A stretch of 32,000 nucleotides of DNA from Dehalococcoidia bacterium (lineage in GTDB: Bacteria; Chloroflexota; Dehalococcoidia; Lucifugimonadales; JADFKI01). Shown here piece by piece: positions 3,196-28,377 of the stretch (position 1 is its first letter; the number at the start of each line of letters is the position of its first letter). The notes below the pieces were generated by a model. It was not told where the DNA came from, made no database searches, and saw nothing but the letters and a program-made list of their open reading frames with translations. The translations under genes were made by a program, and so were the position numbers. The DNA lies in contig OZ242283.1 in assembly GCA_965207465.1 (NCBI GenBank), forward strand, positions 2,022,248 to 2,054,247. The letters are read 5' to 3'.

Positions 3196-4330
3196 CGGAC
3201 ATGACATTGAAGTCGCGGCGCCTCCGACCATACTGCTCCTCGGACGCGCAGGCGCAGGTTCCGCAATAGCAGTCGTCCTCCTGATCCTTCCCGCTCTGCT
3301 CGCCGTGCTCGGGGCCAACCAGGCCGCCGCCTGGCTTGATCCGCTGGCCGTGGCGATCACGACACCCCTAGCCGAGAGGATAGTGGGTTGGCCGGGACCA
3401 CTCGGAGCCATGCTCGCCGGGGACTACGGACTGCTCACGATGGGGCCGCTGCTGTTCGTGTGGGCGGTCCCCACGGTGCTTGTCTATTCGGTGCTGATCA
3501 GCGTTTACAAGGCGAGCGGCCTCGCCGACCGCATCGGGACGGCGCTCCATCCCCTGTTGCGGCCGGTCGGCCTGCACGGGCGCGACCTGACACGAGTGCT
3601 AATGGGCTTCGGCTGCAACGTCCCGGCAATAGTCTCGACACGCTCCTGTTCTTCCTGCACCCGACCGACGACCGTCGGCGCGATCTCCTTCGGGTCGGCC
3701 TGCTCGTACCAGCTCGGCGCGACGCTCGCGGTTTTTGCCGCCGCCGACAAGAGCATTCTCGTTGTGCCGTATCTGGCTCTGCTCGTCGCGGCGACGCTCG
3801 TCTATACGCGTCTCATAAGTCAGCCTGCCGCGCGGTCAACACTAAACACGCTGCTCATCGAACCGCGCACCTTCCTCACCTGGCCGTCCTTCGCGGCAGT
3901 CTGGGCGGAGACACAAGGGACTGTTGGGGCATTTTTCCGCACGGCGCTCCCGACCTTCTTAGCGATCGCCATGGTTGCCTCGCTCCTCGACTGGTCTGGT
4001 GCGCTCGATGCAGTTGGGGGCTTGCTGGCACCGGCGATGGCCGTGTTCGCATTGCCGGCAGACGCGGCAATGCCGACCGCGCTTGCCGCAGTCCGCAAGG
4101 ACGGCATACTGCTGTTGGCCGAGGCAGGCACCGTCGCCTCGTTGAGTGCGGCCCAGCTTCTGGTTGCAACATTCCTCGCCGGAACGGTGCTGCCATGTCT
4201 AGTCACCGTGATCACGATTGGGCGCGAACTCGGGCTACTGTTCGCGAGCAGGCTTGTCGTGCAACAGTCCGCCTTCGCCGTCATGGTCGCCGCCACAGTC
4301 GGCTGGGCCTCAGCCGCGTTCGGCGGGTAA
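3185..4330 (+). CDS. FeoB-like permease (Gate / nucleoside-recognition domain) lacking the N-terminal GTPase domain
   Basis: Polytopic membrane protein with the FeoB gate motif GFGCNVPAIVSTRSC. No P-loop G domain is present. The start is uncertain: GTG 3185 overlaps the upstream stop (3193-3195), and the open frame runs back to 3083 inside the upstream gene. Confidence 0.7.
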   Translation: MSADGHDIEVAAPPTILLLGRAGAGSAIAVVLLILPALLAVLGANQAAAWLDPLAVAITTPLAERIVGWPGPLGAMLAGDYGLLTMGPLLFVWAVPTVLVYSVLISVYKASGLADRIGTALHPLLRPVGLHGRDLTRVLMGFGCNVPAIVSTRSCSSCTRPTTVGAISFGSACSYQLGATLAVFAAADKSILVVPYLALLVAATLVYTRLISQPAARSTLNTLLIEPRTFLTWPSFAAVWAETQGTVGAFFRTALPTFLAIAMVASLLDWSGALDAVGGLLAPAMAVFALPADAAMPTALAAVRKDGILLLAEAGTVASLSAAQLLVATFLAGTVLPCLVTVITIGRELGLLFASRLVVQQSAFAVMVAATVGWASAAFGG

Positions 4331-4474
4331 CGATCCACATCACACTCTCTGGCGCAATGCATGGGCATTAGATAGCAAATCGCTCCTCTCCCTCAGGTCC
4401 ACCAGCAACCCACTTGACGCGGGCCTGCGGCTCCTGCCATTCTCTCGTCCCCTGTGCCTCTCCGATTCACATCC

Positions 4475-4503
4475 TTGACATAAACCTCGCCTCTTCATAG
4501 GAT
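4475..4503 (+). promoter_or_regulatory. Candidate sigma70-type promoter for the sterol reductase gene
   Basis: TTGACA (4475-4480), a 17-nt spacer, then TAGGAT (4498-4503), about 100 nt upstream of ATG 4604. Pattern match only. Confidence 0.3.
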
Positions 4504-4603
4504 TGCAGCCATAAACGGCTCTGTTCAATGGACAGCCCATTGGCGGACAGTCCATCGGCATTCGGCTTTGTAGCAGGCCGCTTGGACGTGCCTACCGCGC
4601 CGG

Positions 4604-5761
4604 ATGAAGGGAAATTCGACATTGATTGAATGGCTCGGTATCAGTCACCTTTTCGAGCTTTCCGGAACGGAAGCTGTCGCGGGCTTTCTCACGCCGCTAG
4701 CGGTCTTCGCCGTTTTCTTCGTGGCGCAATTGATAGTTCCAGCAAGGCGGGTTACTGGCTATGTCATCAACCCGGAAACTGGCGAAGCCCGCAACTACCG
4801 GCTGAACGGCATTCTGGTATTCGCAATAGCGGTCGTCGTGTGGGCCACTGAGATTACCGGTATGCCACGCGACTGGTTCTATCGCTCCTCTGTCTATGCG
4901 GTGGCTGGCGGAACGGTCCTATGCCTCATATTCTCGCTGCTGGCAGTGTACAGCCGTCCACCGGGCCACATAAAGAACCCGCTTGTCGCGCTGTGGGAAG
5001 GCCGCGCCCTGGAGTTGCCGTTCTTCAACGAACGCTTCGACGTCAAGATGTACCTGTATCTCGTGGGCGGGACGATGCTGTCGCTCAACGCCATGTCCGG
5101 CGCCGCCTATCACTACGAGCTATTTGGCGAAAACTCCAATCCGGGCGTTTTCCTGTATGCGGCGTTCTTTACTTTCTATGTCTTTGACTACTTCGTCTTC
5201 GAGCGCGTGCAGCTATACACTTATGACTTGATTCATGAGCATCTCGGCTTCAAATTGATATGGGGCGGCCTCGTGGTCTATGGCTGGCTCTACATCCTCC
5301 CGCTGTGGGGCATGGCCGCTTACCCGGACCCCGGCTTCTCATCGGTATGGACGTACGTCTGGCTCATTGGAACGGCTACGCTGTTTCTGGTCGGCTGGGG
5401 CATATCGCGCGGCGCCAACATGCAGAAATATACATTCAAGCGATGGCCCGACCGTAAGTTTCTCGGAATCATCGAGCCTGAGTACATCGAGGCGGGAAAC
5501 CGCAAGATTCTGTGCAGCGGCTTGTGGGGCTATGCCCGACACTTCAACTATCTGGGCGAGGGCTTCTTCTGCTTTTCCATCGGGCTGGTATTCGGCTATT
5601 TCACCAATCCGTGGGCTTGGACATACTTTATCTTCATCGTTTCGCTGTTCATCTGGCGTCAACGACTTGACGATAGTGTATGTGCCGAGAAGTACGGCGC
5701 CGAAAAGTGGGCAGAATATCAGGAACGGGTGAAGTACCGGATTCTTCCCGGTGTCTATTAG
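4604..5761 (+). CDS. ERG4/ERG24-family sterol reductase (C-14 / C-24(28) / 7-DHCR type; specificity unresolved)
   Basis: Polytopic membrane protein. Its C-terminus LCSGLWGYARHFNYLGEGF...WRQRLDDSVCAEKYGAEKWAEYQERVKYRILPGVY aligns with the family signature seen in LBR/ERG24 (GWWGxxRHPNYLGD...RDExxCxxKYGxxWxxYxxxVPYRIxPxIY). Confidence 0.9.
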   Translation: MKGNSTLIEWLGISHLFELSGTEAVAGFLTPLAVFAVFFVAQLIVPARRVTGYVINPETGEARNYRLNGILVFAIAVVVWATEITGMPRDWFYRSSVYAVAGGTVLCLIFSLLAVYSRPPGHIKNPLVALWEGRALELPFFNERFDVKMYLYLVGGTMLSLNAMSGAAYHYELFGENSNPGVFLYAAFFTFYVFDYFVFERVQLYTYDLIHEHLGFKLIWGGLVVYGWLYILPLWGMAAYPDPGFSSVWTYVWLIGTATLFLVGWGISRGANMQKYTFKRWPDRKFLGIIEPEYIEAGNRKILCSGLWGYARHFNYLGEGFFCFSIGLVFGYFTNPWAWTYFIFIVSLFIWRQRLDDSVCAEKYGAEKWAEYQERVKYRILPGVY

Positions 5762-6011
5762 CCGGCGTCTATTGGAATCTCGACAGACTTCGCCCCTGCC
5801 GCATCCCTGCAATGAATTGCCGGTCAGACGTGCGCCACGTCGCGCTGCTCGTCAACCTGTTCCGCTTCATCCAGAGCAAGCGGCGAACTTGGCACTGTGG
5901 CGCTCATACGTTGATAAACAGCCAGGAGTCCTGCTTCATCACCGGGCTTGCTGCCGCGAGGCAGCTTGGCGCGGACTACCCATTTCGACGTTCCGGCGGC
6001 GAAGCGTTCGT

Positions 6012-7106
6012 TCAACTATTACGGAGGCTTCCTGCACGGCTCACGACTCCGGAAGGCATAGCGCCTACGCATTCACCCGGGTCAGGATAAAACTGAGAGC
6101 AGTAGCGCCTGAAGGGCATGATCTTACCGTCAGAACGGCAAAGGCGTGGGCGCGCTCGATACTGCTGGCGGCTCCAGATTACCACGTCCTGAAGCACATC
6201 CTGCCTCTGCTGAGATGCGATGAATCGATTTATGATGGGAGCGCGCAATCCCACAGGGAGAAACCCCAGACCCGCAATCATCCTCTTCGGATTGCGTATC
6301 TCCCGCGCCTGAGATACTAAGGTCATGTCGATAAGTGTGCCGTCCACCGGCGTCGCAAGCACCCACAGGCGCAAGTCCATGCCAATCGAGCGTTCGCGTA
6401 TTTCCACGTAAGAATATCCCAGCCCAAAGACAAATGTGCGCGCGGAGACGTCGAAGGTTAATTTGAAAGGGCCGGCTATGGTTCGGGTCCTCTCGAAGTC
6501 GAAGCGGGCTTCGAGGTAGGGACCCTCAACGGACGCTTCCACGACCGGGTTGACACTGTCGTAGCCGTGTACGTAACGCAGGTGCGCGAGATCAACTGAG
6601 TTCTCCGTTGTGTCCTGAGGGTGGCCGGGAAAGCGAAGTGTGTTGATCTCGAAATTGGTCCAGCCCGCCTGGTCAAGCATCCTATCAGGCAGGCTCCATT
6701 GCGGCCGTCGTCCTCCGATGCCCCACCATGCGAATATAAGCCCCAGAATTTCCTGTGTCTCATAGACTCTCAGCCTTGCGGTCTTAGGTGGCGGAGCAAA
6801 GGGCGTGGCGACGCATTGTCCGGTCGCATCGAATTCGTAGCCGTGGAAAGGGCATACAAGTTTGCCGTCGCATACACGTCCTCCGGCGGCCGGTCCGAGG
6901 TCGGCGCCGAGGTGAGGGCAGTAGGCGTCGGCGACACAGACGCGCCCACTCTCGTCGGCCCAGACAATGACGTTCTCGCCCATCCAGGTCTTCTGGATGA
7001 GCTTCGCCCTCAGTACAGCCTCACGAGTCGAGACGAAATACCATCCCTCCGGGAAGGGAGATGGTGACTCAGCGTAGGTGAATTCTCTCCGTCCGGTCAC
7101 CATCAT
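6012..7106 (-). CDS. Rieske [2Fe-2S] non-haem-iron oxygenase, KshA / Neverland (cholesterol 7-desaturase)-like
   Basis: Rieske motif DAYCPHLGADL...(17 aa)...CPFHGYEF. Mononuclear iron motif ENSVDLAHLRYVH (DxxHxxxxH). Its length of 364 aa is typical of KshA-class single-subunit oxygenases. Confidence 0.88.
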   Translation of the reverse strand: MMVTGRREFTYAESPSPFPEGWYFVSTREAVLRAKLIQKTWMGENVIVWADESGRVCVADAYCPHLGADLGPAAGGRVCDGKLVCPFHGYEFDATGQCVATPFAPPPKTARLRVYETQEILGLIFAWWGIGGRRPQWSLPDRMLDQAGWTNFEINTLRFPGHPQDTTENSVDLAHLRYVHGYDSVNPVVEASVEGPYLEARFDFERTRTIAGPFKLTFDVSARTFVFGLGYSYVEIRERSIGMDLRLWVLATPVDGTLIDMTLVSQAREIRNPKRMIAGLGFLPVGLRAPIINRFIASQQRQDVLQDVVIWSRQQYRARPRLCRSDGKIMPFRRYCSQFYPDPGECVGAMPSGVVSRAGSLRNS

Positions 7107-7320
7107 TCATCGCCTCTCAACCGGAATCCCGATCGAACTGCTGCTTTTGTGGACTCCAATGTCGTCGCGTTCTCCAAGTACAGACAATCCAAGAAGTGTA
7201 GGTTCCACGTTCCCGGGCCAGCGATTTTCGGGTTTCAGTTTCCTGTTTAGCAAAGCGGATGAGCAGCGGTAGATAAGGATTCGAGGTCGATACGCACCCG
7301 AACTTACTATTAGTTTAAGG

Positions 7321-7367
7321 TCATGCAGCGTCATGCAGCTCGCACCTTTATAGTACCCTTATAGTCC
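7321..7367. promoter_or_regulatory. Direct repeats in the Rieske/P450 divergent intergenic region (possible operator or promoter elements)
   Basis: Tandem 10-mers TCATGCAGCG/TCATGCAGCT (7321-7340), followed by TTATAGT at 7348-7354 and 7359-7365 (11-bp phasing). They sit in the relatively AT-rich 317-nt gap between two divergent genes. Confidence 0.2.
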
Positions 7368-7423
7368 TTTCCACGACTAAATCGCTAGGGTATCCTTGTT
7401 ACCAATAAGTCCAATACATCAGG

Positions 7424-9475
7424 ATGACGCATGGAAAGGCGAGACTGATGACTCTCTTAATGGAAGGTGTGACGACTCAGCCTCTGAGCTTGCCCGAAGA
7501 ACTCATTCTGATGCTTCTAAATGAGGAGACGGGCTACTTCCATCAGGTCCCGGGCTGGGATTTGAACTGCGCCGTCATCGGAGCCGTGCTTGCGGAACTC
7601 TCGCTCGTATCCTGCATTGACACGGATAGGGATTCCCTCATTCTTCTGGACGATACGGAAGTGGGAGACCCTGTACTCGATCCTATTCTCAAGCAAATTG
7701 TGGCGGAATCTGAGCAGCACAACGCCCAGTACTGGATCGAGCGGCTCGCTCCCCGCGCGGAGTCGATCATTGACTTGACACTGAATCGCCTCGTTGAACT
7801 TGACATCCTCGAGCACCATGACGGCGAGTTCTGGACGTTATCCCGGACTGTCGGCGGGGGCAACCGCGGTGCCGACGGCGAAGACGGCAGCGCGGTGGAG
7901 TTCATTGCCTCTCGCATCAGAAGAGTGCTTTTCAACAACGTGATCCCCTACCCGAGAGAGGTCGTCATCATCTGCCTCCTCAAAACGTGCGATGTGCTGC
8001 GGTTCATATTCCAGCTCGATGACGAGGTGGAGGCGCGCATCGAGGCAATCTCAAATATCGACCTGATAGGCCGCGCCATCACGAATGCGGTAACTCAGAA
8101 CCTCGCCGGTCCCTTGCTTCGACGCTCCGGCCTTACCAGGAAAATACCGGTCGTCTCCCTGAGTAAGTTGCTGTTCAATCCGCATGTTCGCAGCGGAAAC
8201 GTCCCCGCGCTTTTCGCGGACCTGGCGCGAGAGTACGGCCCTGTCTTCGAGTTACGCCCTCCGTTCGTCGAGCCGATGATTATCCTGGCAGGGGCAGAGA
8301 CGAATCGCTGGGTGCATCGACAAGGACGCTTGCACCTGAGAACCAGGGACTACTTTGCCGATTTCGAGAAGGTCTATGGCGCGTCTGGAGTATTGCCCTC
8401 TCTGGACGGGGCGGACCATTTCCGGCTCCGCAAGTCGATGTCGTCGGCATATTCTCGCGGCAGGCTGATGGGGCAGATGGACCAGCTCATTCATCATGTG
8501 CGGAATCACATGGCAGACTGGACGGTTGGAGACACCTACCCCGCAACGCGCATGTGCCGCCGAATGGTAAACTCGCAGATTTCTCCCCTCTTTGTCGGTG
8601 TTGAATCCCAGGACATATTTGACGATTTGGCGGAGTACAAGGAGCGGGCACTTAGCACGCACATCGTGAAGGCGCTGCCCAAGTTCATGCTGCAAACTCC
8701 GGGCATGAGACGCCGCGCGAAATCGGTGGACACATTGCTGGAACGGATACAGAGCGTGCATACGCCTGCCCAGCGGGCTGACGCTTCCCGAAACCTTGCG
8801 GACGACATTCTGAGTCTGCACGCGAGCGACCCGCAGTTCTTCCCGGAGTCCAACCTACGCTTCGCTCTTTCGGCCGCGCTGATTGCCAGCGTGTACCTCG
8901 GCGACGCGTTCAGCTTCGCGCTGTACGCCATGGTTTCGCAGCCGGACCTCTACGCGAGAATCCAAGAAGAGGCCGATGCCCTTTTCGAGAATGGCGATCC
9001 GAATCCAGAGGACCTCACTCCGTCCTCGATTGATGTGACCCACCGCTTCCTTATGGAGAGCCTGCGACTCTACCCGATAGTGCCGGTGTCCATGCGGCAT
9101 GTGATGAATTCGTGCGTGGTCGAGGGCTACGAACTGCCGGTGGGGGCGAGGCTCGTTATCGCTCAGGCGGCGACGCATTACATGGACGAGTTCTTCCCAG
9201 ACTCAACCACATTCGACATCGACCGATACCTGCCTCCGCGCAACGAGCATCACAATCCCGGCTATGCGCCTTACGGACTGGGCACGCATATATGCCTCGG
9301 CTCCCGGTGGATGGAAACGCAACTTGCCGTCAATGTGCTTATGGTCGCGCACTACTTCACGCTAAGAGTGTCACCCGAAGACTACAAGCTCAAGTTCAGT
9401 CCGCTGCCATCCTCGAAGCCGAGCAAGAAGCTGAAGTTCCGCGTCGCGGAGCAGCGGCACGAGATGAACTTCTAA
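7424..9475 (+). CDS. Fusion protein: N-terminal GPP34/GOLPH3-like domain plus C-terminal cytochrome P450
   Basis: Residues ~20-225 fit the GPP34 pattern: LSLPEELILMLLNEETGYF..., AVIGAVLAELSL, GDPVLDPILKQI, REVVIICLLKTCDVLRFIF. Residues ~240-683 are a P450, with the K-helix ESLRLYP (ExxR) and the haem-thiolate loop YAPYGLGTHICLGSRW (FxxGxxxCxG). Alternative starts exist at 7448 and 7460. Confidence 0.88.
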   Translation: MTHGKARLMTLLMEGVTTQPLSLPEELILMLLNEETGYFHQVPGWDLNCAVIGAVLAELSLVSCIDTDRDSLILLDDTEVGDPVLDPILKQIVAESEQHNAQYWIERLAPRAESIIDLTLNRLVELDILEHHDGEFWTLSRTVGGGNRGADGEDGSAVEFIASRIRRVLFNNVIPYPREVVIICLLKTCDVLRFIFQLDDEVEARIEAISNIDLIGRAITNAVTQNLAGPLLRRSGLTRKIPVVSLSKLLFNPHVRSGNVPALFADLAREYGPVFELRPPFVEPMIILAGAETNRWVHRQGRLHLRTRDYFADFEKVYGASGVLPSLDGADHFRLRKSMSSAYSRGRLMGQMDQLIHHVRNHMADWTVGDTYPATRMCRRMVNSQISPLFVGVESQDIFDDLAEYKERALSTHIVKALPKFMLQTPGMRRRAKSVDTLLERIQSVHTPAQRADASRNLADDILSLHASDPQFFPESNLRFALSAALIASVYLGDAFSFALYAMVSQPDLYARIQEEADALFENGDPNPEDLTPSSIDVTHRFLMESLRLYPIVPVSMRHVMNSCVVEGYELPVGARLVIAQAATHYMDEFFPDSTTFDIDRYLPPRNEHHNPGYAPYGLGTHICLGSRWMETQLAVNVLMVAHYFTLRVSPEDYKLKFSPLPSSKPSKKLKFRVAEQRHEMNF

Positions 9476-9505
9476 CGCGCCATAAGAGCGAAGACTTGCG
9501 TACTA

Positions 9506-9537
9506 GCCCTTCGACAAGCTCAGGGCGAACGGAAAAG
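9506..9537 (+). repeat. Dispersed 31-nt repeat, copy 1 (GCCCTTCGACAAGCTCAGGGCGAACGGAAAA)
   Basis: Matches 25142-25172 with a single mismatch over the first 30 nt. Both copies lie just downstream of a stop codon. Confidence 0.7.
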
Positions 9538-9590
9538 AGGCGTTATGCAACAACCCCCCAAAAGCCTGCCCTGCGAACTGTGCCTGAGGG

Positions 9591-10643
9591 CTAAAGGGGT
9601 TTACGAGCCAGAAAGCAGTAGAGCGGCGTGAATATCCCTGCCCTGCCGCCCGCGACATAGGCTTTAGCGGTACGGTCCATCAAGCCTATGACATCCGCGG
9701 AGCCTTTCGGAAACACTCTTACCACCTCGGCAAGCCTGGCTGCCCCTATCAACGACTTGCGGCCGAGAGGAGTTCTACGCAGGGCGCTGCCTAGCGTTCC
9801 GCGCCGAGTTTCCATGGGCTGATACCAAGGTGTGGTCGGCCCGTCCTCCTCGACGGCGTAGTCTCTCCCCTCAACGACCTGAAATCCCGCCGCTTCGAGC
9901 GCCAAGTTCACCTCGCCGATCGTCTCTATATCCCTGAGGGCGATGCCGCGCATCAGCTCCCGCTTGATGGCGCGATGCCGACTGTCGCCGGTGTCGAAGT
10001 CATCCGTCATGCACATTTCCTGACCCCAGAAGAGCGCTCCGGGTTTCAGCACGCGGTATATCTCCGCGAACGCGCCTGCCTTGTGCGGCGCATGGCAGGT
10101 CGATTCAATCGCGTAGCCCCCGTCAAAGGCGCAGTCCTCGACGGCGCCCATGTCCATGAAACTGCACGCAAGGTAGTCCATCAGGTGGTCAAGCCCCGCC
10201 TCGGCGTTCAACGACTTCGCCTTGTCCAGCTGGATTTCGCTGTTATTCAGCCCCACTACCCTAACGCCGGCCTCCCGCGCTACACGGCGCATCGGGCCGC
10301 CGATGCCGCAGCCAATATCAATGACTGTCATGCCCTCTCGCAACTCCAACTTGTCAATCATCAGCCGTTGATGCCGGACTTTGGAGTCTTCCAGACTTTC
10401 CCGGGGCGACAGCGGCGCGAAGTGCAGGGACTCACCCCAGCCGAACACCATGAACTCGCTGCAAAGGTCGTAGTATTCCCTGACGGTTTCGGCGTGGTCG
10501 TATGCCGTCGCGTTCTTATCTTCCAGGCTCGCCCTGTCAGTCCAGCCGTCGAATTCTCTCACGCGACGGTGAGTGTCGGAGCCGTGGTACGCGGACTTCA
10601 GTCCCCTGGACAGTTCACGGAGTTGCGGGAAACTTTTCAACAT
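9591..10643 (-). CDS. Sterol C-24 methyltransferase (ERG6/SMT family)
   Basis: Near-colinear motif match to yeast ERG6. [21 protein letters not shown] corresponds to [56 protein letters not shown] corresponds to [63 protein letters not shown] corresponds to [26 protein letters not shown]. The C-terminal sterol-MT domain (PWYQPM ... [19 protein letters not shown]) is also present. Confidence 0.93.
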   Translation of the reverse strand: [350 protein letters not shown]

Positions 10644-10670
10644 GTAGGATGACCTTACGGAGCGTGCCGC

Positions 10671-13172
10671 CTATGATGCGCTCTCGCCGCTCTCGTGTCT
10701 CAGATGCACTTCCTCAATCGTCACATCAAGATCGTTCCACATGCGTTCGATGGAAGAGCGCAGCCGCATGTTCTGGTACGCGCCCCATACGACCATGGCA
10801 GGGAGAACGACAAGAATGGCGACGACCAGCGAATAGACGATAGTGATTGTCGCCGTGATGCCGAATTGCTGGGACGCAGCGAGCGGAGAGGCTATCAGCA
10901 CTCCGAATCCCAAAGCGGTCGTCAGCGCGGAGCCAAGCAGCGCCGAGCCGGTAGTCGCAAGGGTTCGGATTGCCGCCCTCTCCGGGTTTCGCAGGCGGAA
11001 GTATTCCTCCCGGTAGCGATGAATTACATGTATGGTGTAGTCCACGCCAATGCCGATAGACAGCGCCGTGATGATGGATGTAACCAGTGTGTAGGGAATA
11101 TCCAGCAGCGCCATCGTTCCCAGCACGCAGATAAGCACGAAGACGATTGGCCCCACCGCGACGAGTCCCAGCGCAGGCTGTCGGAGCGTAACCCAGAAGA
11201 AGATTGTGAGGATGCCGAGCGCCACCGCGATGGTCGTGCTGATTGCCTCCGTCTGTCCATCCGTTATCTGATCGGTCACAGCGACAGCGACAATTTCGCC
11301 GGAAATCGCGGTGATCGTGCTGTCTTCACCAAACCAGAGGTCCTCGGTCTCCTCCTGGATCATCCTCGACTGCTCGGGATCACCCAGATAGGTCGGAAAC
11401 TGGAGCAGCATTGTGTCAATGCCGTTCGGATCGTTAATCAGGAAGTGCGCCAGACCCGGTTCCCTTTCTACCAGCTTGTCAAGGACTTGCTGCATCTTTT
11501 GCCGGTCGAGTTCCACCCCGGAGGATGCTTCGTGGAAGAGCGCTTCAATTTCTGGATCGTAGTTGTCACCCGGCTCTCCTGAGTCGTCGATCCAGTCTTG
11601 CAGGTGCGAGTAGTATGAGGTCTGGATCGGCCCTGCCGCCGCCCGCGGGCGACGACTTTCGTCGTCGAAAGCGGCCGTGAGGTCTTGAATGTTCAGAAGG
11701 GTTCGAGTGTCCGTAGCCTCAGCCTTTACCAGCAGGCTGGCGACCTCGGTAGAGCCGCCGACTGCCGCCTCAAGCGTGTCCATGTCCTCCACCACACTAC
11801 CGCCTCTCGGCAGGATGTCGCGTATGCTGAATTCGGACTTAAGCCCGGTCGCGGCGAAGCCAAGCCCGACCGTAATAAGGACGACGGCCACGATGTATGG
11901 TGCGGGCCAGCGCGTGACCCATCTCCCCAGCTGCTCCGCCAGTGAGCTGATGCCGGGCAAGGCGTTCGCCATGGGACGGGGAGGCTTCAAGGTGCCGCGC
12001 GATTCCCGGCGGCGGTCGATGATTGTGCGGCCCGCCGGTATAAGCGTCAGCATTACTATCAGACTCATTCCCACGCCAAGCCCCGCGACGATGCCGAAGT
12101 CGCCAATCACGCCGATTGGCGAGAACAGGGTTGCCAGCAGGCTCACGATAGTCGTAACGGCGGCCAGCGTCAGCGGGACTGTGACGTTTCGCAGTCCGAC
12201 ACGCACCGCTGCCAGGACCGGCTCGCCCTCAAGCCGCTGCTCACGGTAGTGGGAGACCGCCTGGATGGCGTAGTCCACAGTCAGGCTTATAATGATGACG
12301 GGAACCATAGCGGTGAGCGAACTAGGCGGGCCTATCAGCCCCAACCCGTTCGGCCCAAGCCAGCCTTCCGCCCCGACGATCCATGTCAGCGAAATTATCA
12401 GTCCCGCCAGAGTCAGCAGCATGTCCGACAGCGTGCGCATGAATACCAGCAGCAGCACGGCAATCAGCAGCAGCGCCAGCCCTATCAACGGCGCCATGCC
12501 TGTCTCAGTCGCTTCCCTGTACTCGTCCTCCACAATCGTCGGCGATAGGCTGCTCACACTCAGAGAGCCTTGACTGTCCGCCGCCAGCTCGTTAATACGG
12601 CGTTCCGCGTCCTTCACCCTCTCGTCGCCTGTGTCAGTCAGCCGTATGTTCGCGATGGCGACCGGTGTGCCGTCATCATCAGTTCCGGTCATCGCGTCGA
12701 TTGCGGCCTGAATCTGCGGGATGCTCCGGACGGCATCTATTTCAGCCTGAGTGATCCCCTCCAGACTCTGCCTTTGCAGCGCGGCTTGGACCAGGAACGA
12801 TGGAGAGATGATCGGATCGGATGGCACCAGCAGCCCGCCCGTACCTGTACCACCCACCCCCGGGTCCGTGGCGATGGCGTTGATCAGTGCGCTCATCTGT
12901 GAGATGCCGCCGGGTGTCAGAGCGTTCCCGCGGAAGATAAGCGTTACGATGCTGACATCACCGGATTCGCCGAACAGTTCGTCTATTTCCTCAGTCGCGG
13001 TGGCAACGGCGTGTCCGGGCGGAAGGAAGGCGACATCCGCCCCTTCAGTCGGCGGCGCGCGAAAGGTAGTTCCCGCAGCCAGCAGAACGGTTATCGCTAT
13101 CAGGACGATGATCGTGATATACGGACGAGCCGTGACGAGCCGGCTGAAATTGAAGAGAATCTGATTCATCAT
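10671..13172 (-). CDS. MMPL/RND-superfamily lipid exporter (HpnN-like, sterol-sensing-domain-type fold)
   Basis: 833 aa with a pseudo-twofold architecture: TM1, a ~190-aa loop, TM2-6, then TM7, a ~190-aa loop, TM8-12. Duplicated motifs LTVDYAIQAVSHYRE and IGVDYTIHVIHRYREE are typical of MMPL/HpnN proteins. It ends 28 nt upstream of the SMT gene on the same strand. Confidence 0.9.
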   Translation of the reverse strand: MMNQILFNFSRLVTARPYITIIVLIAITVLLAAGTTFRAPPTEGADVAFLPPGHAVATATEEIDELFGESGDVSIVTLIFRGNALTPGGISQMSALINAIATDPGVGGTGTGGLLVPSDPIISPSFLVQAALQRQSLEGITQAEIDAVRSIPQIQAAIDAMTGTDDDGTPVAIANIRLTDTGDERVKDAERRINELAADSQGSLSVSSLSPTIVEDEYREATETGMAPLIGLALLLIAVLLLVFMRTLSDMLLTLAGLIISLTWIVGAEGWLGPNGLGLIGPPSSLTAMVPVIIISLTVDYAIQAVSHYREQRLEGEPVLAAVRVGLRNVTVPLTLAAVTTIVSLLATLFSPIGVIGDFGIVAGLGVGMSLIVMLTLIPAGRTIIDRRRESRGTLKPPRPMANALPGISSLAEQLGRWVTRWPAPYIVAVVLITVGLGFAATGLKSEFSIRDILPRGGSVVEDMDTLEAAVGGSTEVASLLVKAEATDTRTLLNIQDLTAAFDDESRRPRAAAGPIQTSYYSHLQDWIDDSGEPGDNYDPEIEALFHEASSGVELDRQKMQQVLDKLVEREPGLAHFLINDPNGIDTMLLQFPTYLGDPEQSRMIQEETEDLWFGEDSTITAISGEIVAVAVTDQITDGQTEAISTTIAVALGILTIFFWVTLRQPALGLVAVGPIVFVLICVLGTMALLDIPYTLVTSIITALSIGIGVDYTIHVIHRYREEYFRLRNPERAAIRTLATTGSALLGSALTTALGFGVLIASPLAASQQFGITATITIVYSLVVAILVVLPAMVVWGAYQNMRLRSSIERMWNDLDVTIEEVHLRHESGESAS

Positions 13173-13213
13173 GCGCGACCCCTAATTTAAGGTGGTTTCT
13201 GCATAGATAGGAG

Positions 13214-13240
13214 ATTATAAATCGATTTCCAATCTTACAA
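13214..13240 (-). promoter_or_regulatory. Candidate promoter for the MMPL-SMT operon
   Basis: On the minus strand: TTGTAA (13240-13235), a 15-nt spacer, then a perfect TATAAT (13219-13214), about 42 nt upstream of ATG 13172. The spacing is suboptimal. The candidate overlaps the CCAAT-N6-ATTGG inverted repeat at 13229-13244. Confidence 0.25.
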
Positions 13241-13333
13241 TTGGCAGAAATCCCTGTAAAGCGCGCATCTACAACTTAGGTGGTATAGTTCGTCGCACGT
13301 CCGTTCCCTGCCCTTCGCAAGTGTCAGGGGCCG

Positions 13334-13375
13334 GGGCTGACATCGATGGACAGGATGGGGAGGATGGGACAGGAG
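13334..13375 (+). repeat. Junction motif copy J1 (GGGCTGACATCGATGGACAGGATGGGGAGGATGGGACAGGAGG)
   Basis: Member of a 7-copy family with core CTAACATCGATGnACAGGATGGrnAGGAT. This copy is intergenic. Confidence 0.7.
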
Positions 13376-13550
13376 GAAAATGGTGATTATGCCCAGCTTT
13401 GTAGGGCTGTGAGTTACATTTGACCCACTGGCAAATGCGCGGTGTCTAGTTTAACCTGTCAGTTGTCGGCGGTTTGGAGATTGCCGACCGGTCCGCATAT
13501 ACGCGAGCGGGCAACGCGACGACCCCAGCGTTATTTGCTGTGGAGCTGCA

Positions 13551-13564
13551 ATTGGCATGCCAAT
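13551..13564. promoter_or_regulatory. Perfect 14-bp palindrome ATTGGCATGCCAAT upstream of amidase 1 (possible operator)
   Basis: Read directly from the sequence. It lies 68 nt upstream of ATG 13632 and shares CCAAT/ATTGG half-sites with the inverted repeat at 13229-13244. Confidence 0.25.
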
Positions 13565-13631
13565 AGGTCGGGGCTATCGTCGTAACAGATTCACCGCAGA
13601 CCAGGCCGGAAGAGAGACAGGAGAGCGCACT

Positions 13632-15032
13632 ATGGCAGACATCATTTACGCATCGGCTAAGACTATGGCTCAGGCGATTCAGGACAAAGAAGTGTCGGCG
13701 GTCGAACTGGTGGACGCGCACCTGGCGCGTATCGAAGAGGTGAACCCGACAATCAACGCGGTTGTGACGCTCGCCGCGGAAAGAGCGCGGGCCGAGGCGC
13801 AAGAAGCCGACGACGCTCTTGCGCGGGGCGACAGCAAGGGCGCGCTGCACGGCGTTCCGTTCACGCTGAAGGACTCGATAGACACAGAGGGCGTAGTTAC
13901 GACCGGCGGCACGCTAGGCCGCAAGGACTTCGTGCCCGATGCCGATGCCACAGTCGCCGCAAGGCTCAGAGCGGCTGGTGGCATATTGCTGGGCAAGTCG
14001 AACACGCCGGAGCTGACGCTTGCCGCAGAGACCGACAACCTGGTCTATGGACGAACGAACAACCCGTACAACGTCGAGCGCACGACAGGCGGGAGCAGCG
14101 GGGGCGCGGGGGCTATCGTGTCATGCGGGGGCGCGGCATTCGACATAGGCAGCGACACAGGCGGCAGCGTGCGCTATCCGGCTCATTTCTGCGGCATCGC
14201 GGGGCTGAAGCCGAACTCCGGTAGAGTGCCGCGCACGGGGCACATCGTGTCGCACAGCATGGGCGCGGTGGATTCGCTGACGCAGAACGGGCCGATGGCG
14301 CGGTATGTCGAAGACCTTGCGCTGATTCTGCCTATCATATCGGGGCCGGACTGGAGCGACCCGTTCATCGTGCCAGTGCCTCTAGGCGATCCTGCGGACG
14401 TGGACATTAGCAGTCTGCGAATTTGCTTCTACACGGACAACGGGATAGGCACGCCGACCGATGAGACTATCGCTGCTGTGCGCTCGGCTGTCGCGGCTCT
14501 GGCGGACACGGGCTGCTCGATAGTAGAAGATGTACCTTCGATCATCGCGGAGAACCCGGAAATCTCCAACAAGCTGTCGGGCGGCGACGGCAGGGTATGG
14601 ACGCAGCGGCAGCTGGATAAGTGGGGCACTACGGAGATATTCCCATATCTGGAGCGTCGGATTGCCAGGGCGTCAGAGGAGTTCGAGGTGGAAGTGGGAG
14701 ACTTTACGGCTATGCTGGAACATGTGGATAGCTTCCGCAGCACGATGCTGGGCTTCATGCAGGACTACGATGTCATAGTCTGCCCTGTGGCGGCATTCCC
14801 TGCCCAGCCGCACGGAGAGTCGCTTGAGGACAGGAACCAGCCGGGCATGAGCTACACGGCGACATACAACATCACGGGCTGGCCATCGACCGTCATACGG
14901 GGCGGCACATCGCCGGAAGGGTTGCCTATCGGAGTGCAGGTTGTGGCGCGGCCGTGGCGCGAGGATGTGTCGCTGGCGGTGGCGCAGTATCTTGAGGGCG
15001 TGACCGGTGGGTGGGTGAAGCCGCCGATTTAG
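13632..15032 (+). CDS. Amidase-signature (AS) family amidase, paralogue 1
   Basis: Catalytic Lys context PFTLKDSIDT, GGSSGGAGA, and nucleophile context GSDTGGSVR. The start is set at MADIIYASAK by homology with paralogues 2 and 3 (GGAGAG upstream); the ORF track extends to 13557. Confidence 0.9.
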   Translation: MADIIYASAKTMAQAIQDKEVSAVELVDAHLARIEEVNPTINAVVTLAAERARAEAQEADDALARGDSKGALHGVPFTLKDSIDTEGVVTTGGTLGRKDFVPDADATVAARLRAAGGILLGKSNTPELTLAAETDNLVYGRTNNPYNVERTTGGSSGGAGAIVSCGGAAFDIGSDTGGSVRYPAHFCGIAGLKPNSGRVPRTGHIVSHSMGAVDSLTQNGPMARYVEDLALILPIISGPDWSDPFIVPVPLGDPADVDISSLRICFYTDNGIGTPTDETIAAVRSAVAALADTGCSIVEDVPSIIAENPEISNKLSGGDGRVWTQRQLDKWGTTEIFPYLERRIARASEEFEVEVGDFTAMLEHVDSFRSTMLGFMQDYDVIVCPVAAFPAQPHGESLEDRNQPGMSYTATYNITGWPSTVIRGGTSPEGLPIGVQVVARPWREDVSLAVAQYLEGVTGGWVKPPI

Positions 15033-15039
15033 AGGTGGA

Positions 15040-15068
15040 CTTACATGGATGGACAGGATGGAGGAGAT
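15040..15068 (+). repeat. Junction motif copy J2 (CTTACATGGATGGACAGGATGGAGGAGAT)
   Basis: Begins 8 nt after the amidase 1 stop and is followed directly by the 101-bp tandem array. Confidence 0.65.
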
Positions 15069-15071
15069 ATA

Positions 15072-15328
15072 TCACCCTCATCCCTTGTCCGCACAGGGGC
15101 AGGCTCTAGCCTTCCCCCATCAAGGGCTTAGCGGGGTATGTATTGAGAATAAGAGGGATTGCGGTTGCGATTTCACCCCCATCCCCTGTCTGCACAGGGG
15201 CAGGCTCTAGCCTTCCCCCATCAAGGGCTTAGCGGGGTATGTATTGAGAATAAGAGGGATTGCGGTTGCGATTTCACCCCCATCCCCTGTCTGCACAGGG
15301 ACAGGCTCTAGCCTTCCCCCATCAAGGG
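15072..15328 (+). repeat. Tandem repeat, 101-bp unit x ~2.5, derived from the double-hairpin REP-like element
   Basis: Units start at 15072, 15173 and 15274 (TCACCCCCATCCCCTGTCTGCACAGGGGCAGGCTCTAGCCTTCCCCCATCAAGGGCTTAGCGGGGTATGTATTGAGAATAAGAGGGATTGCGGTTGCGATT). Copies 2 and 3 are near-identical. The last unit resolves into the full hairpin CCTTCCCCC-ATCAA-GGGGGAAGG (15312-15334). Confidence 0.9.
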
Positions 15329-15420
15329 GGAAGGGACTCTGAGCAGCATTTTAAGCATTTACCTACCCCTGTCAGCCTGTCAAGGGGGAAGGGACGAATT
15401 AGAGACACAGGATCGTGATT

Positions 15421-16818
15421 ATGAGCGAGATTATCTATGCGTCGGCGAAGAGTATGGCGCGGGCGATTCGGGACAAGGAAGTGTCGGCGGTGGAGCTGGT
15501 GGAGGCGCATCTGGCGCGCATCGAAGAGGTGAATCCGGCTCTGAATGCGGTGGTGATGCTGGCGGCAGAGCAGGCGCGTGCGGAAGCGGCTGAGGCTGAT
15601 GCCGCTCTCGCGCGGGGAGCCCACAAGGGGACGCTTCACGGGGTGCCGTTTACACTGAAGGACTCGATTGACACTGAGGGCGTGGTTACGACGGGCGGGA
15701 CGATGGGGCGCAAGGACTTCGTGCCGGACGCGGATGCGACGGTGGCGGCGCGGCTGCGGGCTGCGGGCGGCATACTGCTAGGCAAGACGAACACACCTGA
15801 AATCACATACGCGGGCGAGACGGACAACCTGATCTTCGGGCGGACGAATAACCCATTCGACCTTGACCGAATGCCCGGGGGCAGCAGCGGCGGAGCGGGG
15901 GCTATCGTGTGCTGCGGCGGAGCGGCGTTCGATATCGGCAGCGACACGGGCGGCAGCATACGAGGTCCGGCGCACTACTGCGGCATTGCGGGGATAAAGC
16001 CGAACTCCGGGCGTGTACCACGCACAGGGCATATTGTGCCGCATAGCTTCGGCGCCGCCGATTCGCTGACTCAGAATGGGCCGATGGCGCGGTATGTCGA
16101 GGACCTTGCGCTCGTCCTGCCAGTCATATCGGGGCCTGACTGGGACGATCCGCATATCGTGCCCGTGCCGCTTGGCGACCCGGCGGATGTGGATATCAGC
16201 GGGCTGCGGGTGGCTTTTTACGATTACAACGGCGTGAATATGCCGACTGCGGAGATCCAGGCGGCGGTGCGAACCGCTGCTTCGTCGCTCGACGATGTCT
16301 GCGCCTCGGTGGAGGAGGACCTGCCACAAGCAATCCCTGACAATCCTGAGATAAACAGTCAACTGAGCCAGGGAAACGGACAGGCAGGCGCTCAGCGGTT
16401 ACTGGAGAGGTACGGCACTACTGAGACGCACGCATGGATTACCCGTCTCCTGGAGAGGGCGAGCGAGAAAATGGTCTCGGTGCAGGAGTACACGGCAGTT
16501 CTGGAGAATGTCGATGCCTACCGCAGCGAGATGCTGGGCTTCATGCAGAACTACGATGTCATCGTATGCCCGGTGTCATCGTATGCCGCATTGCCGCACG
16601 GAGAATCAATGTTCAACGAAAAGTACACAGGGATAGGCTACATGGCGACATACAATATCACGGGCTGGCCCTCGACCGTGGTGCGCGCGGGCACTTCGCC
16701 GGAAGGCCTGCCCATCGGCGTGCAGGTTGTGGCGCGTCCGTGGCGTGAGGACGTGTCTCTCGCGGTGGCGCAGTATCTTGAAGGCGCGCTTGGCGGGTGG
16801 GTGAAGCCGCCATTGTAG
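15421..16818 (+). CDS. Amidase-signature family amidase, paralogue 2
   Basis: Same motifs as paralogue 1 (PFTLKDSIDT, GGSSGGAGA, GSDTGGSIR). Colinear with paralogues 1 and 3 over its full length. ATG 15421 is preferred over GTG 15415. Confidence 0.9.
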   Translation: MSEIIYASAKSMARAIRDKEVSAVELVEAHLARIEEVNPALNAVVMLAAEQARAEAAEADAALARGAHKGTLHGVPFTLKDSIDTEGVVTTGGTMGRKDFVPDADATVAARLRAAGGILLGKTNTPEITYAGETDNLIFGRTNNPFDLDRMPGGSSGGAGAIVCCGGAAFDIGSDTGGSIRGPAHYCGIAGIKPNSGRVPRTGHIVPHSFGAADSLTQNGPMARYVEDLALVLPVISGPDWDDPHIVPVPLGDPADVDISGLRVAFYDYNGVNMPTAEIQAAVRTAASSLDDVCASVEEDLPQAIPDNPEINSQLSQGNGQAGAQRLLERYGTTETHAWITRLLERASEKMVSVQEYTAVLENVDAYRSEMLGFMQNYDVIVCPVSSYAALPHGESMFNEKYTGIGYMATYNITGWPSTVVRAGTSPEGLPIGVQVVARPWREDVSLAVAQYLEGALGGWVKPPL

Positions 16819-16838
16819 GTGTCAGCGGTCAGGAGACT

Positions 16839-16875
16839 GGGCTAACATCGAAGGACAGGATAGACAGGATGGGAG
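16839..16875 (+). repeat. Junction motif copy J3 (GGGCTAACATCGAAGGACAGGATAGACAGGATGGGAG)
   Basis: Lies between the amidase 2 stop (16818) and the amidase 3 ATG (16883). Confidence 0.7.
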
Positions 16876-16882
16876 AAAGATA

Positions 16883-18280
16883 ATGGACGAGATTATCTAC
16901 GCATCGGCGAAGAGTATGGCGCGGGCGATTCGGGACAAGGAAGTGTCGGCGGTGGAGGTGGTGGAGGCGCATCTGGCGCGGATCGAGGAGGTGAATCCGG
17001 CTCTTAATGCGGTGGTTCAGCTTGCGACGGATCGCGCAAAGGTTGAGGCTGTGGAGGCGGATGCTGCGCTTGCGCGGGGTGAGGGCAAGGGCGCGCTGCA
17101 TGGGGTGCCGTTTACGCTGAAGGACTCGATTGATACTGAGGGCGTGGTTACGACGGGCGGAACGATGGGGCGCAAGGACTTTGTGCCTGATGCGGATGCG
17201 ACGGTTACGGCGCGGCTGCGCGCGGCGGGGGGCATACTGCTGGGCAAGACGAATACGCCGGAACTTACTTATGCGGGCGAGACGGATAATCTGGTGTATG
17301 GGCGGACGAACAACCCGTTCGACGTTAGCCGCGCACCGGGCGGCAGCAGCGGGGGCGCGGGGGCTATCGTATGCTGCGGGGGCGCGGCGTTCGACATCGG
17401 CAGCGACACGGGCGGCAGCATACGCGGACCGGCGCACTACTGCGGCATTGCGGGAATCAAGCCGAACTCAGGGCGCGTTCCGCGCACGGGGCATATCGTG
17501 CCGCACGGTCTGGGCGCACTCGACTCGCTGACGCAGAACGGGCCGATGGCGCGGTATGTGGAAGACCTTGCACTCATCATGCCGATCATATCCGGTCCCG
17601 ACTGGAGCGATCCTTTCATACCGCCGGTGACACTTGGCGACCCGGCAGATGTGGATATAAGCGGGCTGCGCGTCTGTTTCTACACGGACAACGGCGTGCG
17701 TACTCCCACTGCGGAGATAATGTCGGCGGTGCGGAATGCGGCTGCCGCGCTCGACGATGTGTGCGCGTCCGTCGAAGAGGACTTGCCGCGCGTCATTGGA
17801 GAGAATCCTGAAATAGCGGAGATGCTGCGTCAAGGGGACGGTCAGGCAGGGGCGCACCGGCTACTGGCGCAGTACGGCACGACCGAGACGCATGAATGGA
17901 TGACAAGACAGCTGGAAAAGTCTAGCGAAAGAGTCGTTCCGGTTGGCGAGTACACGGAAGTTCTAGAGCAGGTGGACGCCTATCGCAGCGCTATGCTGGG
18001 GTTCATGCAGAACTACGATGTCATTATCTGCCCGGTGTCATCGTTTGCAGCGCTCCCGCACGGACTGTCCATGACGGACGAGTACCGCTCAGGCATGAAC
18101 TATACTGGTACATACAACATCACGGGCTGGCCCTCGACCGTGGTGCGCGCGGGCACTTCGCCGGACGGCCTACCCATAGGCGTGCAGGCGGTGGCGCGTC
18201 CGTGGCGAGAGGATGTGTCGCTGGCGGTGGCGCAGTACCTCGAAGGCGCGCTCGGCGGCTGGCAGAAGCCTCCGATGTGA
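16883..18280 (+). CDS. Amidase-signature family amidase, paralogue 3
   Basis: Same motifs as paralogues 1 and 2. By eye, roughly four-fifths of its positions are identical to paralogue 2. Confidence 0.9.
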   Translation: MDEIIYASAKSMARAIRDKEVSAVEVVEAHLARIEEVNPALNAVVQLATDRAKVEAVEADAALARGEGKGALHGVPFTLKDSIDTEGVVTTGGTMGRKDFVPDADATVTARLRAAGGILLGKTNTPELTYAGETDNLVYGRTNNPFDVSRAPGGSSGGAGAIVCCGGAAFDIGSDTGGSIRGPAHYCGIAGIKPNSGRVPRTGHIVPHGLGALDSLTQNGPMARYVEDLALIMPIISGPDWSDPFIPPVTLGDPADVDISGLRVCFYTDNGVRTPTAEIMSAVRNAAAALDDVCASVEEDLPRVIGENPEIAEMLRQGDGQAGAHRLLAQYGTTETHEWMTRQLEKSSERVVPVGEYTEVLEQVDAYRSAMLGFMQNYDVIICPVSSFAALPHGLSMTDEYRSGMNYTGTYNITGWPSTVVRAGTSPDGLPIGVQAVARPWREDVSLAVAQYLEGALGGWQKPPM

Positions 18281-18313: not shown

Positions 18314-18321
18314 CTTTGCCG

Positions 18322-20277: not shown

Positions 20278-20377
20278 CAAAGGCTAGGCTCGGTGCTAAT
20301 CTCATGCTGATAATCTATATTTGGCATGGCAATGGGGGCATGTTGCCCTCCGGCCGAAATTAACTGGGAGGGCAGAT

Positions 20378-28336: not shown

Positions 28337-28369
28337 AATCTAACATCGATAAACAGGATGGATAGGATG
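28337..28369 (+). repeat. Junction motif copy J6 (AATCTAACATCGATAAACAGGATGGATAGGATG)
   Basis: Lies immediately upstream of, and overlaps, the bcp start region. Confidence 0.7.
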
Positions 28370-28377
28370 TGCCCAGT

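Follow-up and report, generated by a model that had tools for sequence, protein, structure and literature searches.

The DNA stretch considered here (hereafter the window) comprises 32,000 nucleotides of contig OZ242283.1 in the Dehalococcoidia bacterium assembly GCA_965207465.1. At positions 9591..10643 on the minus strand it carries an open reading frame (ORF) with an ATG start, whose 350-residue product is assigned to the L89-type subfamily of the sterol methyltransferase (SMT) superfamily. A sequence-only reading of the window had proposed this ORF as a bona fide ERG6-type sterol C-24 methyltransferase embedded in a tailoring and export locus. The ORF is real, all of the motif strings quoted in that reading occur in its translation, and the resemblance to yeast ERG6 holds. 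Genes for a resistance-nodulation-division (RND) transporter with a sterol-sensing domain, a GPP34-cytochrome P450 fusion, a Rieske oxygenase and an ERG4/ERG24-family reductase lie beside it, and their Pfam assignments bear out the location in a lipid tailoring and transport locus. Among bacterial SMTs the window SMT is not the first, nor is it rare; it represents a well-defined and abundant variant with its own conserved partner genes.

In a BLASTP comparison the window SMT and yeast ERG6 shared 118 identities in 331 aligned positions (36%, E 3e-71, 214 bits), and the alignment ran nearly end to end. The ERG6 comparison sequence (P0121, Saccharomyces cerevisiae) was checked and gave 100% identity and 100% coverage apart from a single strain difference, at residue 272. 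The Pfam domain Sterol_MT_C (PF08498) was recognized at residues 287-349 (9597..9785, minus strand) with 57.4 bits against a gathering cutoff of 21.7, and class I methyltransferase domains span residues 50-261. The best non-SMT methyltransferase of known structure in the Protein Data Bank (PDB) reached at most 80.6 bits and aligned with residues 51-204, the Rossmann core, only. An AlphaFold2 (AF2) model of the protein (pLDDT 84.4, pTM 0.84) shows a Rossmann-type methyltransferase, and its closest solved folds are class I methyltransferases. Among the nearest of these are the olefin C-methylators TleD, the geranyl diphosphate (GPP) and farnesyl diphosphate (FPP) C-methyltransferases and cyclopropane fatty acid (CFA) synthase; a solved SMT structure was looked for in the PDB fold search and none was found.

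Neighbour-joining (NJ) trees united the window clade with three deeper representatives, 57%, 51% and 41% identical to the window SMT, with a bootstrap of 100/100. When the tree was rooted with the Escherichia coli CFA synthase (Cfa), the group was nested within SMTs, being monophyletic in 49/60 bootstrap replicates and basal to all SMTs in only 9/60. Placement among non-sterol methyltransferases, which the sequence-only reading had named as a result that would speak against it, is thus not what the tree gives. The closest named neighbours are sponge-symbiont SMTs of 'Ca. Poriferisocius' (Acidimicrobiia) and Dadabacteria, at 41-45% identity. Because of the Sterol_MT_C domain, the full-length alignment with ERG6 and the nesting among SMTs in the Cfa-rooted tree, the window protein is a prokaryotic member of the ERG6/SMT1 superfamily and not a generic methyltransferase.

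The identical protein is recorded in NCBI/ENA on a contig of 3.81 Mb, and close relatives of the window SMT are numerous. Protein clusters that share 75% identity or more with it number over 120, and a scan of one genome per species returned 501 relatives. Among the best 80 of these 501, 78 are labelled as Dehalococcoidia, Chloroflexota/Chloroflexi or SAR202 metagenome-assembled genomes (MAGs), and several of the bins bear names from sponge studies. In a scan of 241 million metagenome records, all 66 of the 66 metagenome loci carried accession series of sponge metagenomes, with LXNJ corresponding to Petrosia ficiformis and LXNI to Sarcotragus foetidus; MKWU and the sibling Ga0209xxx series are presumably from Aplysina aerophoba. 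The series JGIcombinedJ30088 and Ga0209021 are assigned to A. aerophoba in the tables of Brown et al. 2023 (PMC10070321). Two of the related loci (designated by L and a number), L015 and L034, lie about 110 kb apart on the same contig, CBDEGP010000002.1, and their window-type SMTs are 78% and 77% identical to that of the window. Two such genes on one Dehalococcoidia chromosome mean that the subfamily has within-genome paralogs.

For the analysis of individual residues, the window protein was aligned with ERG6, 119 close homologs and 100 diverse superfamily representatives, the latter drawn from 247 matches at E<=1e-30 among 1.84 billion cluster representatives. ERG6 numbering is used below unless residues of the window protein are named. 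Brown and Welander (2025) listed 25 residues that are conserved in all active SMTs, namely Y74, T78, G84, W85, G86, F89, H90, F91, D125, G127, G129, G132, P133, G147, Q154, D189, E195, G217, G268, W286, G333, L341, G352, F357 and P359, and suggested that deviations from them may mark non-functional enzymes (bioRxiv 10.64898/2025.12.19.695621). The window SMT retains 22 of these 25, the exceptions being T78S, F89L and L341M. H90, E195 and the complete S-adenosylmethionine (SAM) motif (D125, G127, G129, G132 and P133) are kept, and all of them are invariant across 120 homologs. On the DNA, Region II with the SAM-binding motif DIGCGIGGP (ERG6 125-133, residues 109-117 of the window protein) lies intact at 10293..10319 on the minus strand.

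Differences from ERG6 occur in other parts of the translation. Region I (ERG6 74-91; 10419..10472, minus strand) carries S78, M81, V82, F83 and L89, and the segment at 9939..10022 on the same strand contains Q208 and M210, which correspond to ERG6 Y223 and W225, as well as I234 and A235, which correspond to positions 249 and 250. The Region I substitution that the sequence-only reading had pointed out (MVF-GWG against YEY-GWG) is confirmed and proves to be clade-wide, the close-homolog clade being fixed for M81 (119/120), V82 (108/120), F83 (118/120), L89 (120/120) and I249 (119/120). The superfamily representatives, by comparison, carry Y81 in 83%, E82 in 78% and F89 in 84%, with N or D at 249; Y223 is found in 70% and W225 in 85% of them, against Q223 and M225 in the window SMT. 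A systematic screen for clade-specific positions, defined as at least 95% fixed in the clade and different from a consensus of at least 60% elsewhere, identified 17, among them the replacements of aromatic residues Y81M, F89L, Y223Q and W225M and also G250A.

The same signature separates two kinds of SMT in the 151 loci that were compared. M81, L89, Q223, M225, I, L or V at 249 and A250 are near-invariant in the SMTs at least 50% identical to that of the window, with the exceptions of one protein with I81 and one truncated ORF without positions 223-250. Every canonical SMT, including copies at the same locus, has Y or F at 81, F89, Y223, W or Y at 225 and G, D, N or T at 249. Most SMT models place residues 81 and 249 no more than 5 Å from the docked sterol, and G249 is needed for propylation, with G249I mutants of a propylating SMT giving C28 products only (bioRxiv 10.64898/2025.12.19.695621). 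The propylation residue G249 is absent from the window SMT, which has I249; F83 is present and is not sufficient.

Whether a protein with such a pocket is still an enzyme is addressed by its mode of evolution. Against six orthologs (79-97% amino-acid identity) the window SMT showed dN/dS values of 0.14-0.20. An in-frame stop at codon 290 was observed in the orthologue of locus L001 (OZ241923.1, 10001-11050; 82% identity), which comes from the best-matching genome and reflects either a lineage pseudogene or an assembly error. That stop, together with the deviation at three of the 25 positions, which the authors of the preprint propose may mean non-function, could be taken to indicate a catalytically dead or decaying paralogue. 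We regard this as very improbable, since dN/dS is low, the variant residues are fixed and not drifting, the SAM motif, H90 and E195 are invariant in the 120 homologs, relatives occur in 501 species-level genomes and synteny is rigid. The same low dN/dS, fixed variant residues and invariant catalytic and SAM residues, with the confident AF2 model, make a dead pseudoenzyme unlikely for the window SMT itself, and a working methyltransferase of the SMT superfamily is the best-supported reading of these data.

The SMT is directly preceded, on its own strand and at a distance of 27 bp in the window, by the gene for an RND lipid transporter of the HAE3/MMPL type with a sterol-sensing domain (10671..13172, minus strand; 833 residues; Pfam MMPL 159.9, Sterol-sensing 47.7 and Patched 34.3 bits). 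The two genes are likely to form one operon. The best PDB relatives of the transporter are MmpL4/5, HpnN, Dispatched and Patched; identification as HpnN (101.9 against an NCBIfam cutoff of 751.85) or as BstA (27.6 against 1400) was rejected. On the other side and convergent with the SMT lies a gene on the plus strand (7424..9475; 683 residues), whose product joins an N-terminal GPP34 domain (107 bits) to a C-terminal cytochrome P450 (116 bits). GPP34 proteins are GOLPH3-like and belong to a phosphoinositide- and membrane-binding family, and the domain may tether the P450 to the membrane; we know of no description of this fusion architecture. Among PDB structures the P450 domain comes closest to CYP51, at only 81 bits, and orthology to CYP51 was rejected, as a real CYP51 aligns at 26% identity over 135 residues only. 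In the P450 of 95 GPP34-P450 orthologs (36-97% identity), the ExxR motif and the heme cysteine are kept. The I-helix region (ASVYLGDAFSF) was observed to be poorly conserved and has no obvious acid-alcohol pair.

Further along, a Rieske [2Fe-2S] oxygenase with a KshA-type C-terminal domain is encoded at 6012..7106 on the minus strand (Pfam Rieske 62 and KshA_C 81.8 bits), with KshA (2zyl, 92.7 bits) as its best PDB match. It was rejected as SdmA, scoring 35.9 bits in NCBIfam against a cutoff of 600 and aligning with an SdmA-like protein over the Rieske domain only. This KshA-like protein is the sole component of steroid-catabolism type in the window, and when the window and the clusters of recurring neighbours were scanned with Pfam, the steroid catabolic partners KshB, KstD, CYP125 and Mce4 and other genes for ring or side-chain degradation did not turn up. 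A paralogue of the ERG4/ERG24 family of sterol reductases, accessory to the cassette, lies at 4604..5761 on the plus strand (Pfam ERG4_ERG24 116.4 bits). Its best PDB match is a delta14-sterol reductase (4quv, 115 bits), it is 33% identical to the ERG24 of the complete sterol cluster described below, and direct comparison with that real sterol cluster led to rejection of ERG24 orthology. A short-chain dehydrogenase/reductase (SDR) at 23175-24155, which resembles 3beta-hydroxysteroid dehydrogenase, was rejected both as SdmB (NCBIfam 41 against a cutoff of 600) and as part of the system, being absent from 81 of 81 related loci. A scan of 4300-13700 for promoters and terminators gave counts that were not above shuffled expectation.

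These neighbours were counted in 74 related genome loci, each extending at least 5 kb to either side of the SMT. RND and GPP34-P450 genes were each found in 57 and the Rieske gene in 53, followed by a flavin amine-oxidase-family gene in 35, the ERG4/24 reductase in 9 and a canonical second SMT in 4; the reductase also occurs in L082, a 97%-identical locus. Gene order is rigid, with the RND gene lying upstream in the same orientation as the SMT in 62 of 62 loci (median gap about 0 bp) and the GPP34-P450 downstream and convergent in 61 of 61 (median gap 40 bp). The flavin amine-oxidase-family protein (PF01593, 55 bits; 462 residues, at 7994-9382 on the minus strand in L013) was usually encoded after the Rieske gene in those 35 loci; it is missing from the window, where the ERG4/24 reductase occupies the neighbouring position. 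The GPP34-P450 also adjoins a 57%-identical SMT and, on a contig with a TonB-dependent receptor from a Gram-negative of another phylum, a 41%-identical SMT with T81, L89, Q223 and I249. Since the fusion accompanies SMTs that are only 41% and 57% identical to that of the window, the pairing of SMT and GPP34-P450 is old.

A connection to complete sterol biosynthesis was found in two loci from A. aerophoba, L095 and L096, which hold a complete sterol cluster (L095 10-13138 and 14773-20168). The genes are arranged in the order SdmB-like, SdmA-like (Rieske and VanA_C), ERG24, CYP51, squalene-epoxidase/oxidosqualene cyclase (OSC) fusion, canonical SMT, L89-type SMT and GPP34-P450. The canonical SMT of this cluster (L095 8109-9140) has F81, F83 and G249 and is 42% identical to the window protein, and the L89-type SMT beside it is approximately 71% identical to that of the window (72% by tblastn). 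The OSC is Nitrospira-type, with 89% identity to a Nitrospira-labelled protein, and genes of the reductive tricarboxylic acid cycle (ATP-citrate lyase and aconitase) adjoin. Squalene-epoxidase/OSC fusions at least 77% identical to that of L095 were labelled as coming from several phyla, and this spread of labels hints at horizontal transfer among sponge symbionts. Canonical second SMTs were also found after the Rieske gene in four Dehalococcoidia cassettes (L003 14456-15556, L006 17223-18263, L009 14441-15499 and L054 at about 18083); those of L003, L006 and L009 have Y81, E82, F89 and G249, and the copy in L054 was located by tblastn alone. This coexistence with canonical SMTs, together with the constant pairing with a specialised P450, leads us to favour the view that the L89-type enzyme does something that the canonical SMT does not.

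The composition of these loci also bears on the nature of the substrate. Botryococcus braunii contains SMT-like triterpene methyltransferases that act on squalene and botryococcene, and the window SMT could likewise methylate an isoprenoid that is not a sterol, for instance squalene or a further triterpenoid, a lipid of the hopanoid type or a polyprenyl chain. The rebuilt sterol pocket would fit such a role, no OSC lies near the gene in the Dehalococcoidia genome loci, prenyl, FPP and GPP C-methyltransferases are among the closest folds of known structure, and the RND transporter resembles HpnN/MmpL lipid exporters as much as sterol transporters. We nevertheless consider it unlikely, as an L89-type gene stands in a complete sterol cluster beside a canonical SMT in the Nitrospira-type loci, the best solved relatives of the partner proteins are CYP51, KshA and a delta14-sterol reductase, Sterol_MT_C is well conserved and the group is nested within SMTs. 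A sterol is the most likely substrate, because of the sterol-type context and the embedding of the gene in a sterol cluster in the Nitrospira-type loci; it may come either from bacterial synthesis or from uptake from the host.

Bacterial SMTs and their activity have been described before, which makes the novelty assumed in the sequence-only reading weaker. SMTs of uncultured bacteria, many of them from sponge metagenomes, methylate desmosterol, and three of them build the 24-isopropyl side chain; among ten assayed sponge-symbiont SMTs eight were active and two inactive, and the canonical symbiont SMTs make (epi)codisterol from desmosterol (PMC10070321). Inactive SMTs may need other sterols according to the authors, and the published assays covered no more than two substrates. 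The symbiont MAGs of Ircinia, those of Dehalococcoidia among them, carry ERG24-CYP51-LSS clusters, and the SMT1/ERG6 orthologue group is enriched (Kelly et al. 2022, PMC9531527). Sterol genes of sponge Dehalococcoidia had therefore also been published.

An indirect link from the L89-type subfamily to the assayed enzymes is provided by contig JGIcombinedJ30088_10000835, on which gene 11 ('SMT 1 of 2') is 42.36% and gene 9 ('SMT 2 of 2') 35.16% identical to ERG6, and genes 12-16 are ERG1/7, ERG11, ERG24, sdmA and sdmB (PMC10070321). The gene order of L095 and L096 mirrors that of this contig, and the L89-type SMT of L095, called from its ATG, is 35.16% identical to ERG6 (122/347), a value equal to that published for '2 of 2'. 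Comparison of gene order and identity thus suggests that the A. aerophoba '2 of 2' enzyme is probably L89-type, in which case it is one of the two inactive sponge-symbiont SMTs; it is probably inactive on desmosterol and 24-methylenecholesterol. Since all active SMTs have F89, no L89-type enzyme is among those active on desmosterol or 24-methylenecholesterol, and the subfamily has either never been assayed or failed on these two sterols. The sequence-only reading had also held that a lack of methyl transfer to any delta-24 sterol would count against its proposal; because the probable member '2 of 2' is probably inactive, such a result may in part already exist.

That proposal, in its classical form, is that the window SMT methylates a delta-24 sterol (zymosterol, lanosterol, cycloartenol or desmosterol, for example) once at C-24, the pocket changes tuning the preference for the nucleus or limiting the reaction to monomethylation. 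The full-length ERG6 alignment, Sterol_MT_C and the intact H90, E195 and SAM motif agree with it, and so do the sterol-type enzymes encoded nearby; I249 is compatible with monomethylation, as G249I mutants still give C28 sterols, and the published assays, with their two substrates, leave room for other delta-24 sterols as acceptors. Yet F89, T78 and L341 are invariant in active SMTs and all changed here, four pocket aromatics are replaced throughout the subfamily, and a probable subfamily member appears to be inactive on desmosterol. Moreover, a second plain C-24 methylase beside a multi-alkylating SMT would be redundant, yet the gene is under purifying selection. We therefore hold the classical function to be rather doubtful, although it deserves more weight than methylation of a non-sterol isoprenoid. 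Membership in the superfamily, as claimed in the sequence-only reading, stands, whereas the designation as a bona fide C-24 SMT does not fit the changes at three of the 25 active-SMT residues and at four pocket aromatics; in function the window SMT is probably not 'ERG6-type'.

Taking the evidence together, we favour, by somewhat more than an even chance, a functional C-methyltransferase of the SMT superfamily with a rebuilt pocket, encoded by a sponge-associated, SAR202-like member of the Dehalococcoidia, which acts on a different substrate or at a different position and forms a module with the GPP34-P450 and the RND transporter. As in other members of the family, the enzyme would pass the methyl group of SAM to an olefinic carbon in the side chain of an isoprenoid (sterol), and the carbocation so formed would be quenched by deprotonation. 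The L89-type pocket appears to have been rebuilt as M81, V82, L89, Q223, M225, I249 and A250, while the SAM site and the catalytic residues were kept, and the enzyme would be non-redundant with canonical C-24 SMTs. Its substrate would probably be a sterol other than desmosterol or 24-methylenecholesterol, or the same kind of side chain would be methylated at a different position or in a different register. The most constant partner in the module would be the convergent, putatively membrane-targeted GPP34-P450, to which the Dehalococcoidia module would add the KshA-like Rieske oxygenase, often the flavin amine-oxidase-family enzyme and sometimes the ERG4/24 reductase. The RND transporter with its sterol-sensing domain presumably carries the substrate or the product through the membrane or out of it, and by analogy with HpnN and MmpL export is the more likely direction.

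Several points weigh against the favoured reading. The catalytic activity of the window SMT and of its subfamily is deduced from sequence, and the roles of positions 89, 223 and 225 in the pocket are those suggested by published models and by mutagenesis of other SMTs; the trees are neighbour-joining only. No orthologues of OSC, CYP51 or SdmAB were found within 10 kb of the SMT in the Dehalococcoidia loci L001-L081 or in the window. An OSC motif or homolog was likewise found neither in the window nor in those loci, the rest of the window's genome lying outside this search. When the OSC of L095 was used as query, the top 120 matches were all at least 77% identical fusions of Nitrospira, Acidimicrobiia or Alphaproteobacteria type, and the window's genome was not reached. 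As for the link to the assayed enzymes, the equation of '2 of 2' with the SMT of L095 is indirect. The identity of the latter to ERG6 shifts to 35.44% when the stop-to-stop ORF is taken, the ERG6 identities of window-type SMTs are densely spaced between 32 and 37%, and contig JGIcombinedJ30088_10000835 was not returned by the metagenome scan. The inactivity in vitro could also be explained by poor expression instead of substrate choice.

The most far-reaching reading would be that the L89-type subfamily and the GPP34-P450 carry out an unconventional alkylation of the sterol side chain, one to which no enzyme is known to be assigned, for example by adding a methyl group at C-26/C-27 to delta-25 sterols like (epi)codisterol. 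We regard this as a long shot, a little less likely even than methylation of a non-sterol isoprenoid. Feeding studies of the Djerassi era reportedly identified delta-25 sterols as the compounds from which 26-methyl sterols are made. If the idea is right, methylation of (epi)codisterol at C-26 would lead to 26-methyl sterols of the aplysterol type, from which the 26-methylstigmastane 'sponge' biomarker derives, and the step that defines this biomarker would be supplied by bacterial symbionts and not by the sponge. Against it, the subfamily is also present in symbionts of sponges that are not known for 26-methyl sterols.

These distinctions matter for the interpretation of fossil lipids. Steranes with 24-alkyl and 26-methyl groups are taken as fossil traces of algae and of sponges as the earliest animals, and the bacterial capacity for making 24-methyl, 24-ethyl and 24-isopropyl side chains is already known. 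Who holds the SMTs for unusual alkylations, the sponge, its symbionts or both, is not established according to a 2025 paper (PMC12541326). The present analysis identifies a second, very abundant SMT-like lineage in sponge symbionts, which current practice would dismiss as 'probably non-functional'. The evolutionary evidence from the sequences speaks instead for an L89-type SMT that is functional and specialised: the gene is under purifying selection, its pocket residues are fixed, its synteny with a P450 and a lipid transporter is rigid, and it occurs together with canonical SMTs. Should its reaction prove to be ordinary C-24 methylation, the dominant sponge Chloroflexi would join the potential bacterial sources of alkylated steranes.

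The remainder of the window contains genes outside the cassette. The 3' end of a 16S rRNA gene occupies 1-475 (Rfam 480.6 bits, model positions 1043-1533), followed by tRNA-Ala(TGC) at 949-1024 and an Exo_endo_phos gene at 1054-1785. No 23S gene follows the 16S gene and tRNA-Ala in the window, and the rRNA operon is therefore unlinked or split. Three tandem amidase paralogs of 491, 467 and 465 residues (Pfam Amidase 338-358 bits) are encoded at 13557-18280 on the plus strand, and a GLUG-motif protein and a DUF362 protein follow on the same strand at 18316-21802; two amidases and the GLUG protein also stand beside the cassette in L081, an arrangement that is not general. At 28369-31069 on the plus strand, genes for an AhpC/TSA peroxiredoxin, an LppX_LprAFG-family lipoprotein (28767-29582) and a transporter of the major facilitator superfamily (MFS; 29588-31069) follow one another, the last coming 6 bp after the second. 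The arrangement of lipoprotein and MFS transporter resembles the mycobacterial LprG/P55 lipid-export pair. In other Dehalococcoidia loci, a homolog of the MFS transporter (22 loci) and a lipoprotein with weak resemblance to LppX, below the Pfam cutoff (20 loci), were observed approximately 5-6 kb from the SMT.

Compared with known systems, the window SMT shares with yeast ERG6 and plant SMT1 (EC 2.1.1.41) the class I methyltransferase and Sterol_MT_C domains, Regions II and III, H90 and E195, and differs from them in the core of Region I, in Y223Q, W225M, D249I and G250A, in its prokaryotic host and in the location of its gene in a likely operon with an RND transporter. Canonical bacterial SMTs of proven activity such as 'A. 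aerophoba 1 of 2' (PMC10070321), represented here by the canonical SMT of L095, belong to the same superfamily, come from the same sponge-symbiont habitat and sometimes share one gene cluster with the window type; unlike it, they have Y or F at 81, E82, F89, Y223, W or Y at 225 and G249, and methylate desmosterol up to three times. The second SMTs of A. aerophoba, the Chromatiales of T. swinhoei and Nitrospira ('2 of 2'; PMC10070321) are 34.5-35.6% identical to ERG6, the window type giving 32-37%, and are putatively L89-type by gene order and percentages. Their genes are found in OSC clusters of other phyla, whereas that of the window is part of a Dehalococcoidia cassette with no OSC nearby. 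With the bacterial sterol systems that comprise SdmA/SdmB, CYP51, ERG24 and BstA, and with HpnN, the window shares the superfamilies of its Rieske, P450, ERG4/24 and sterol-sensing RND proteins; its neighbours are non-orthologous to these components, and its Rieske protein is of the KshA type, in contrast to the VanA_C type of SdmA.

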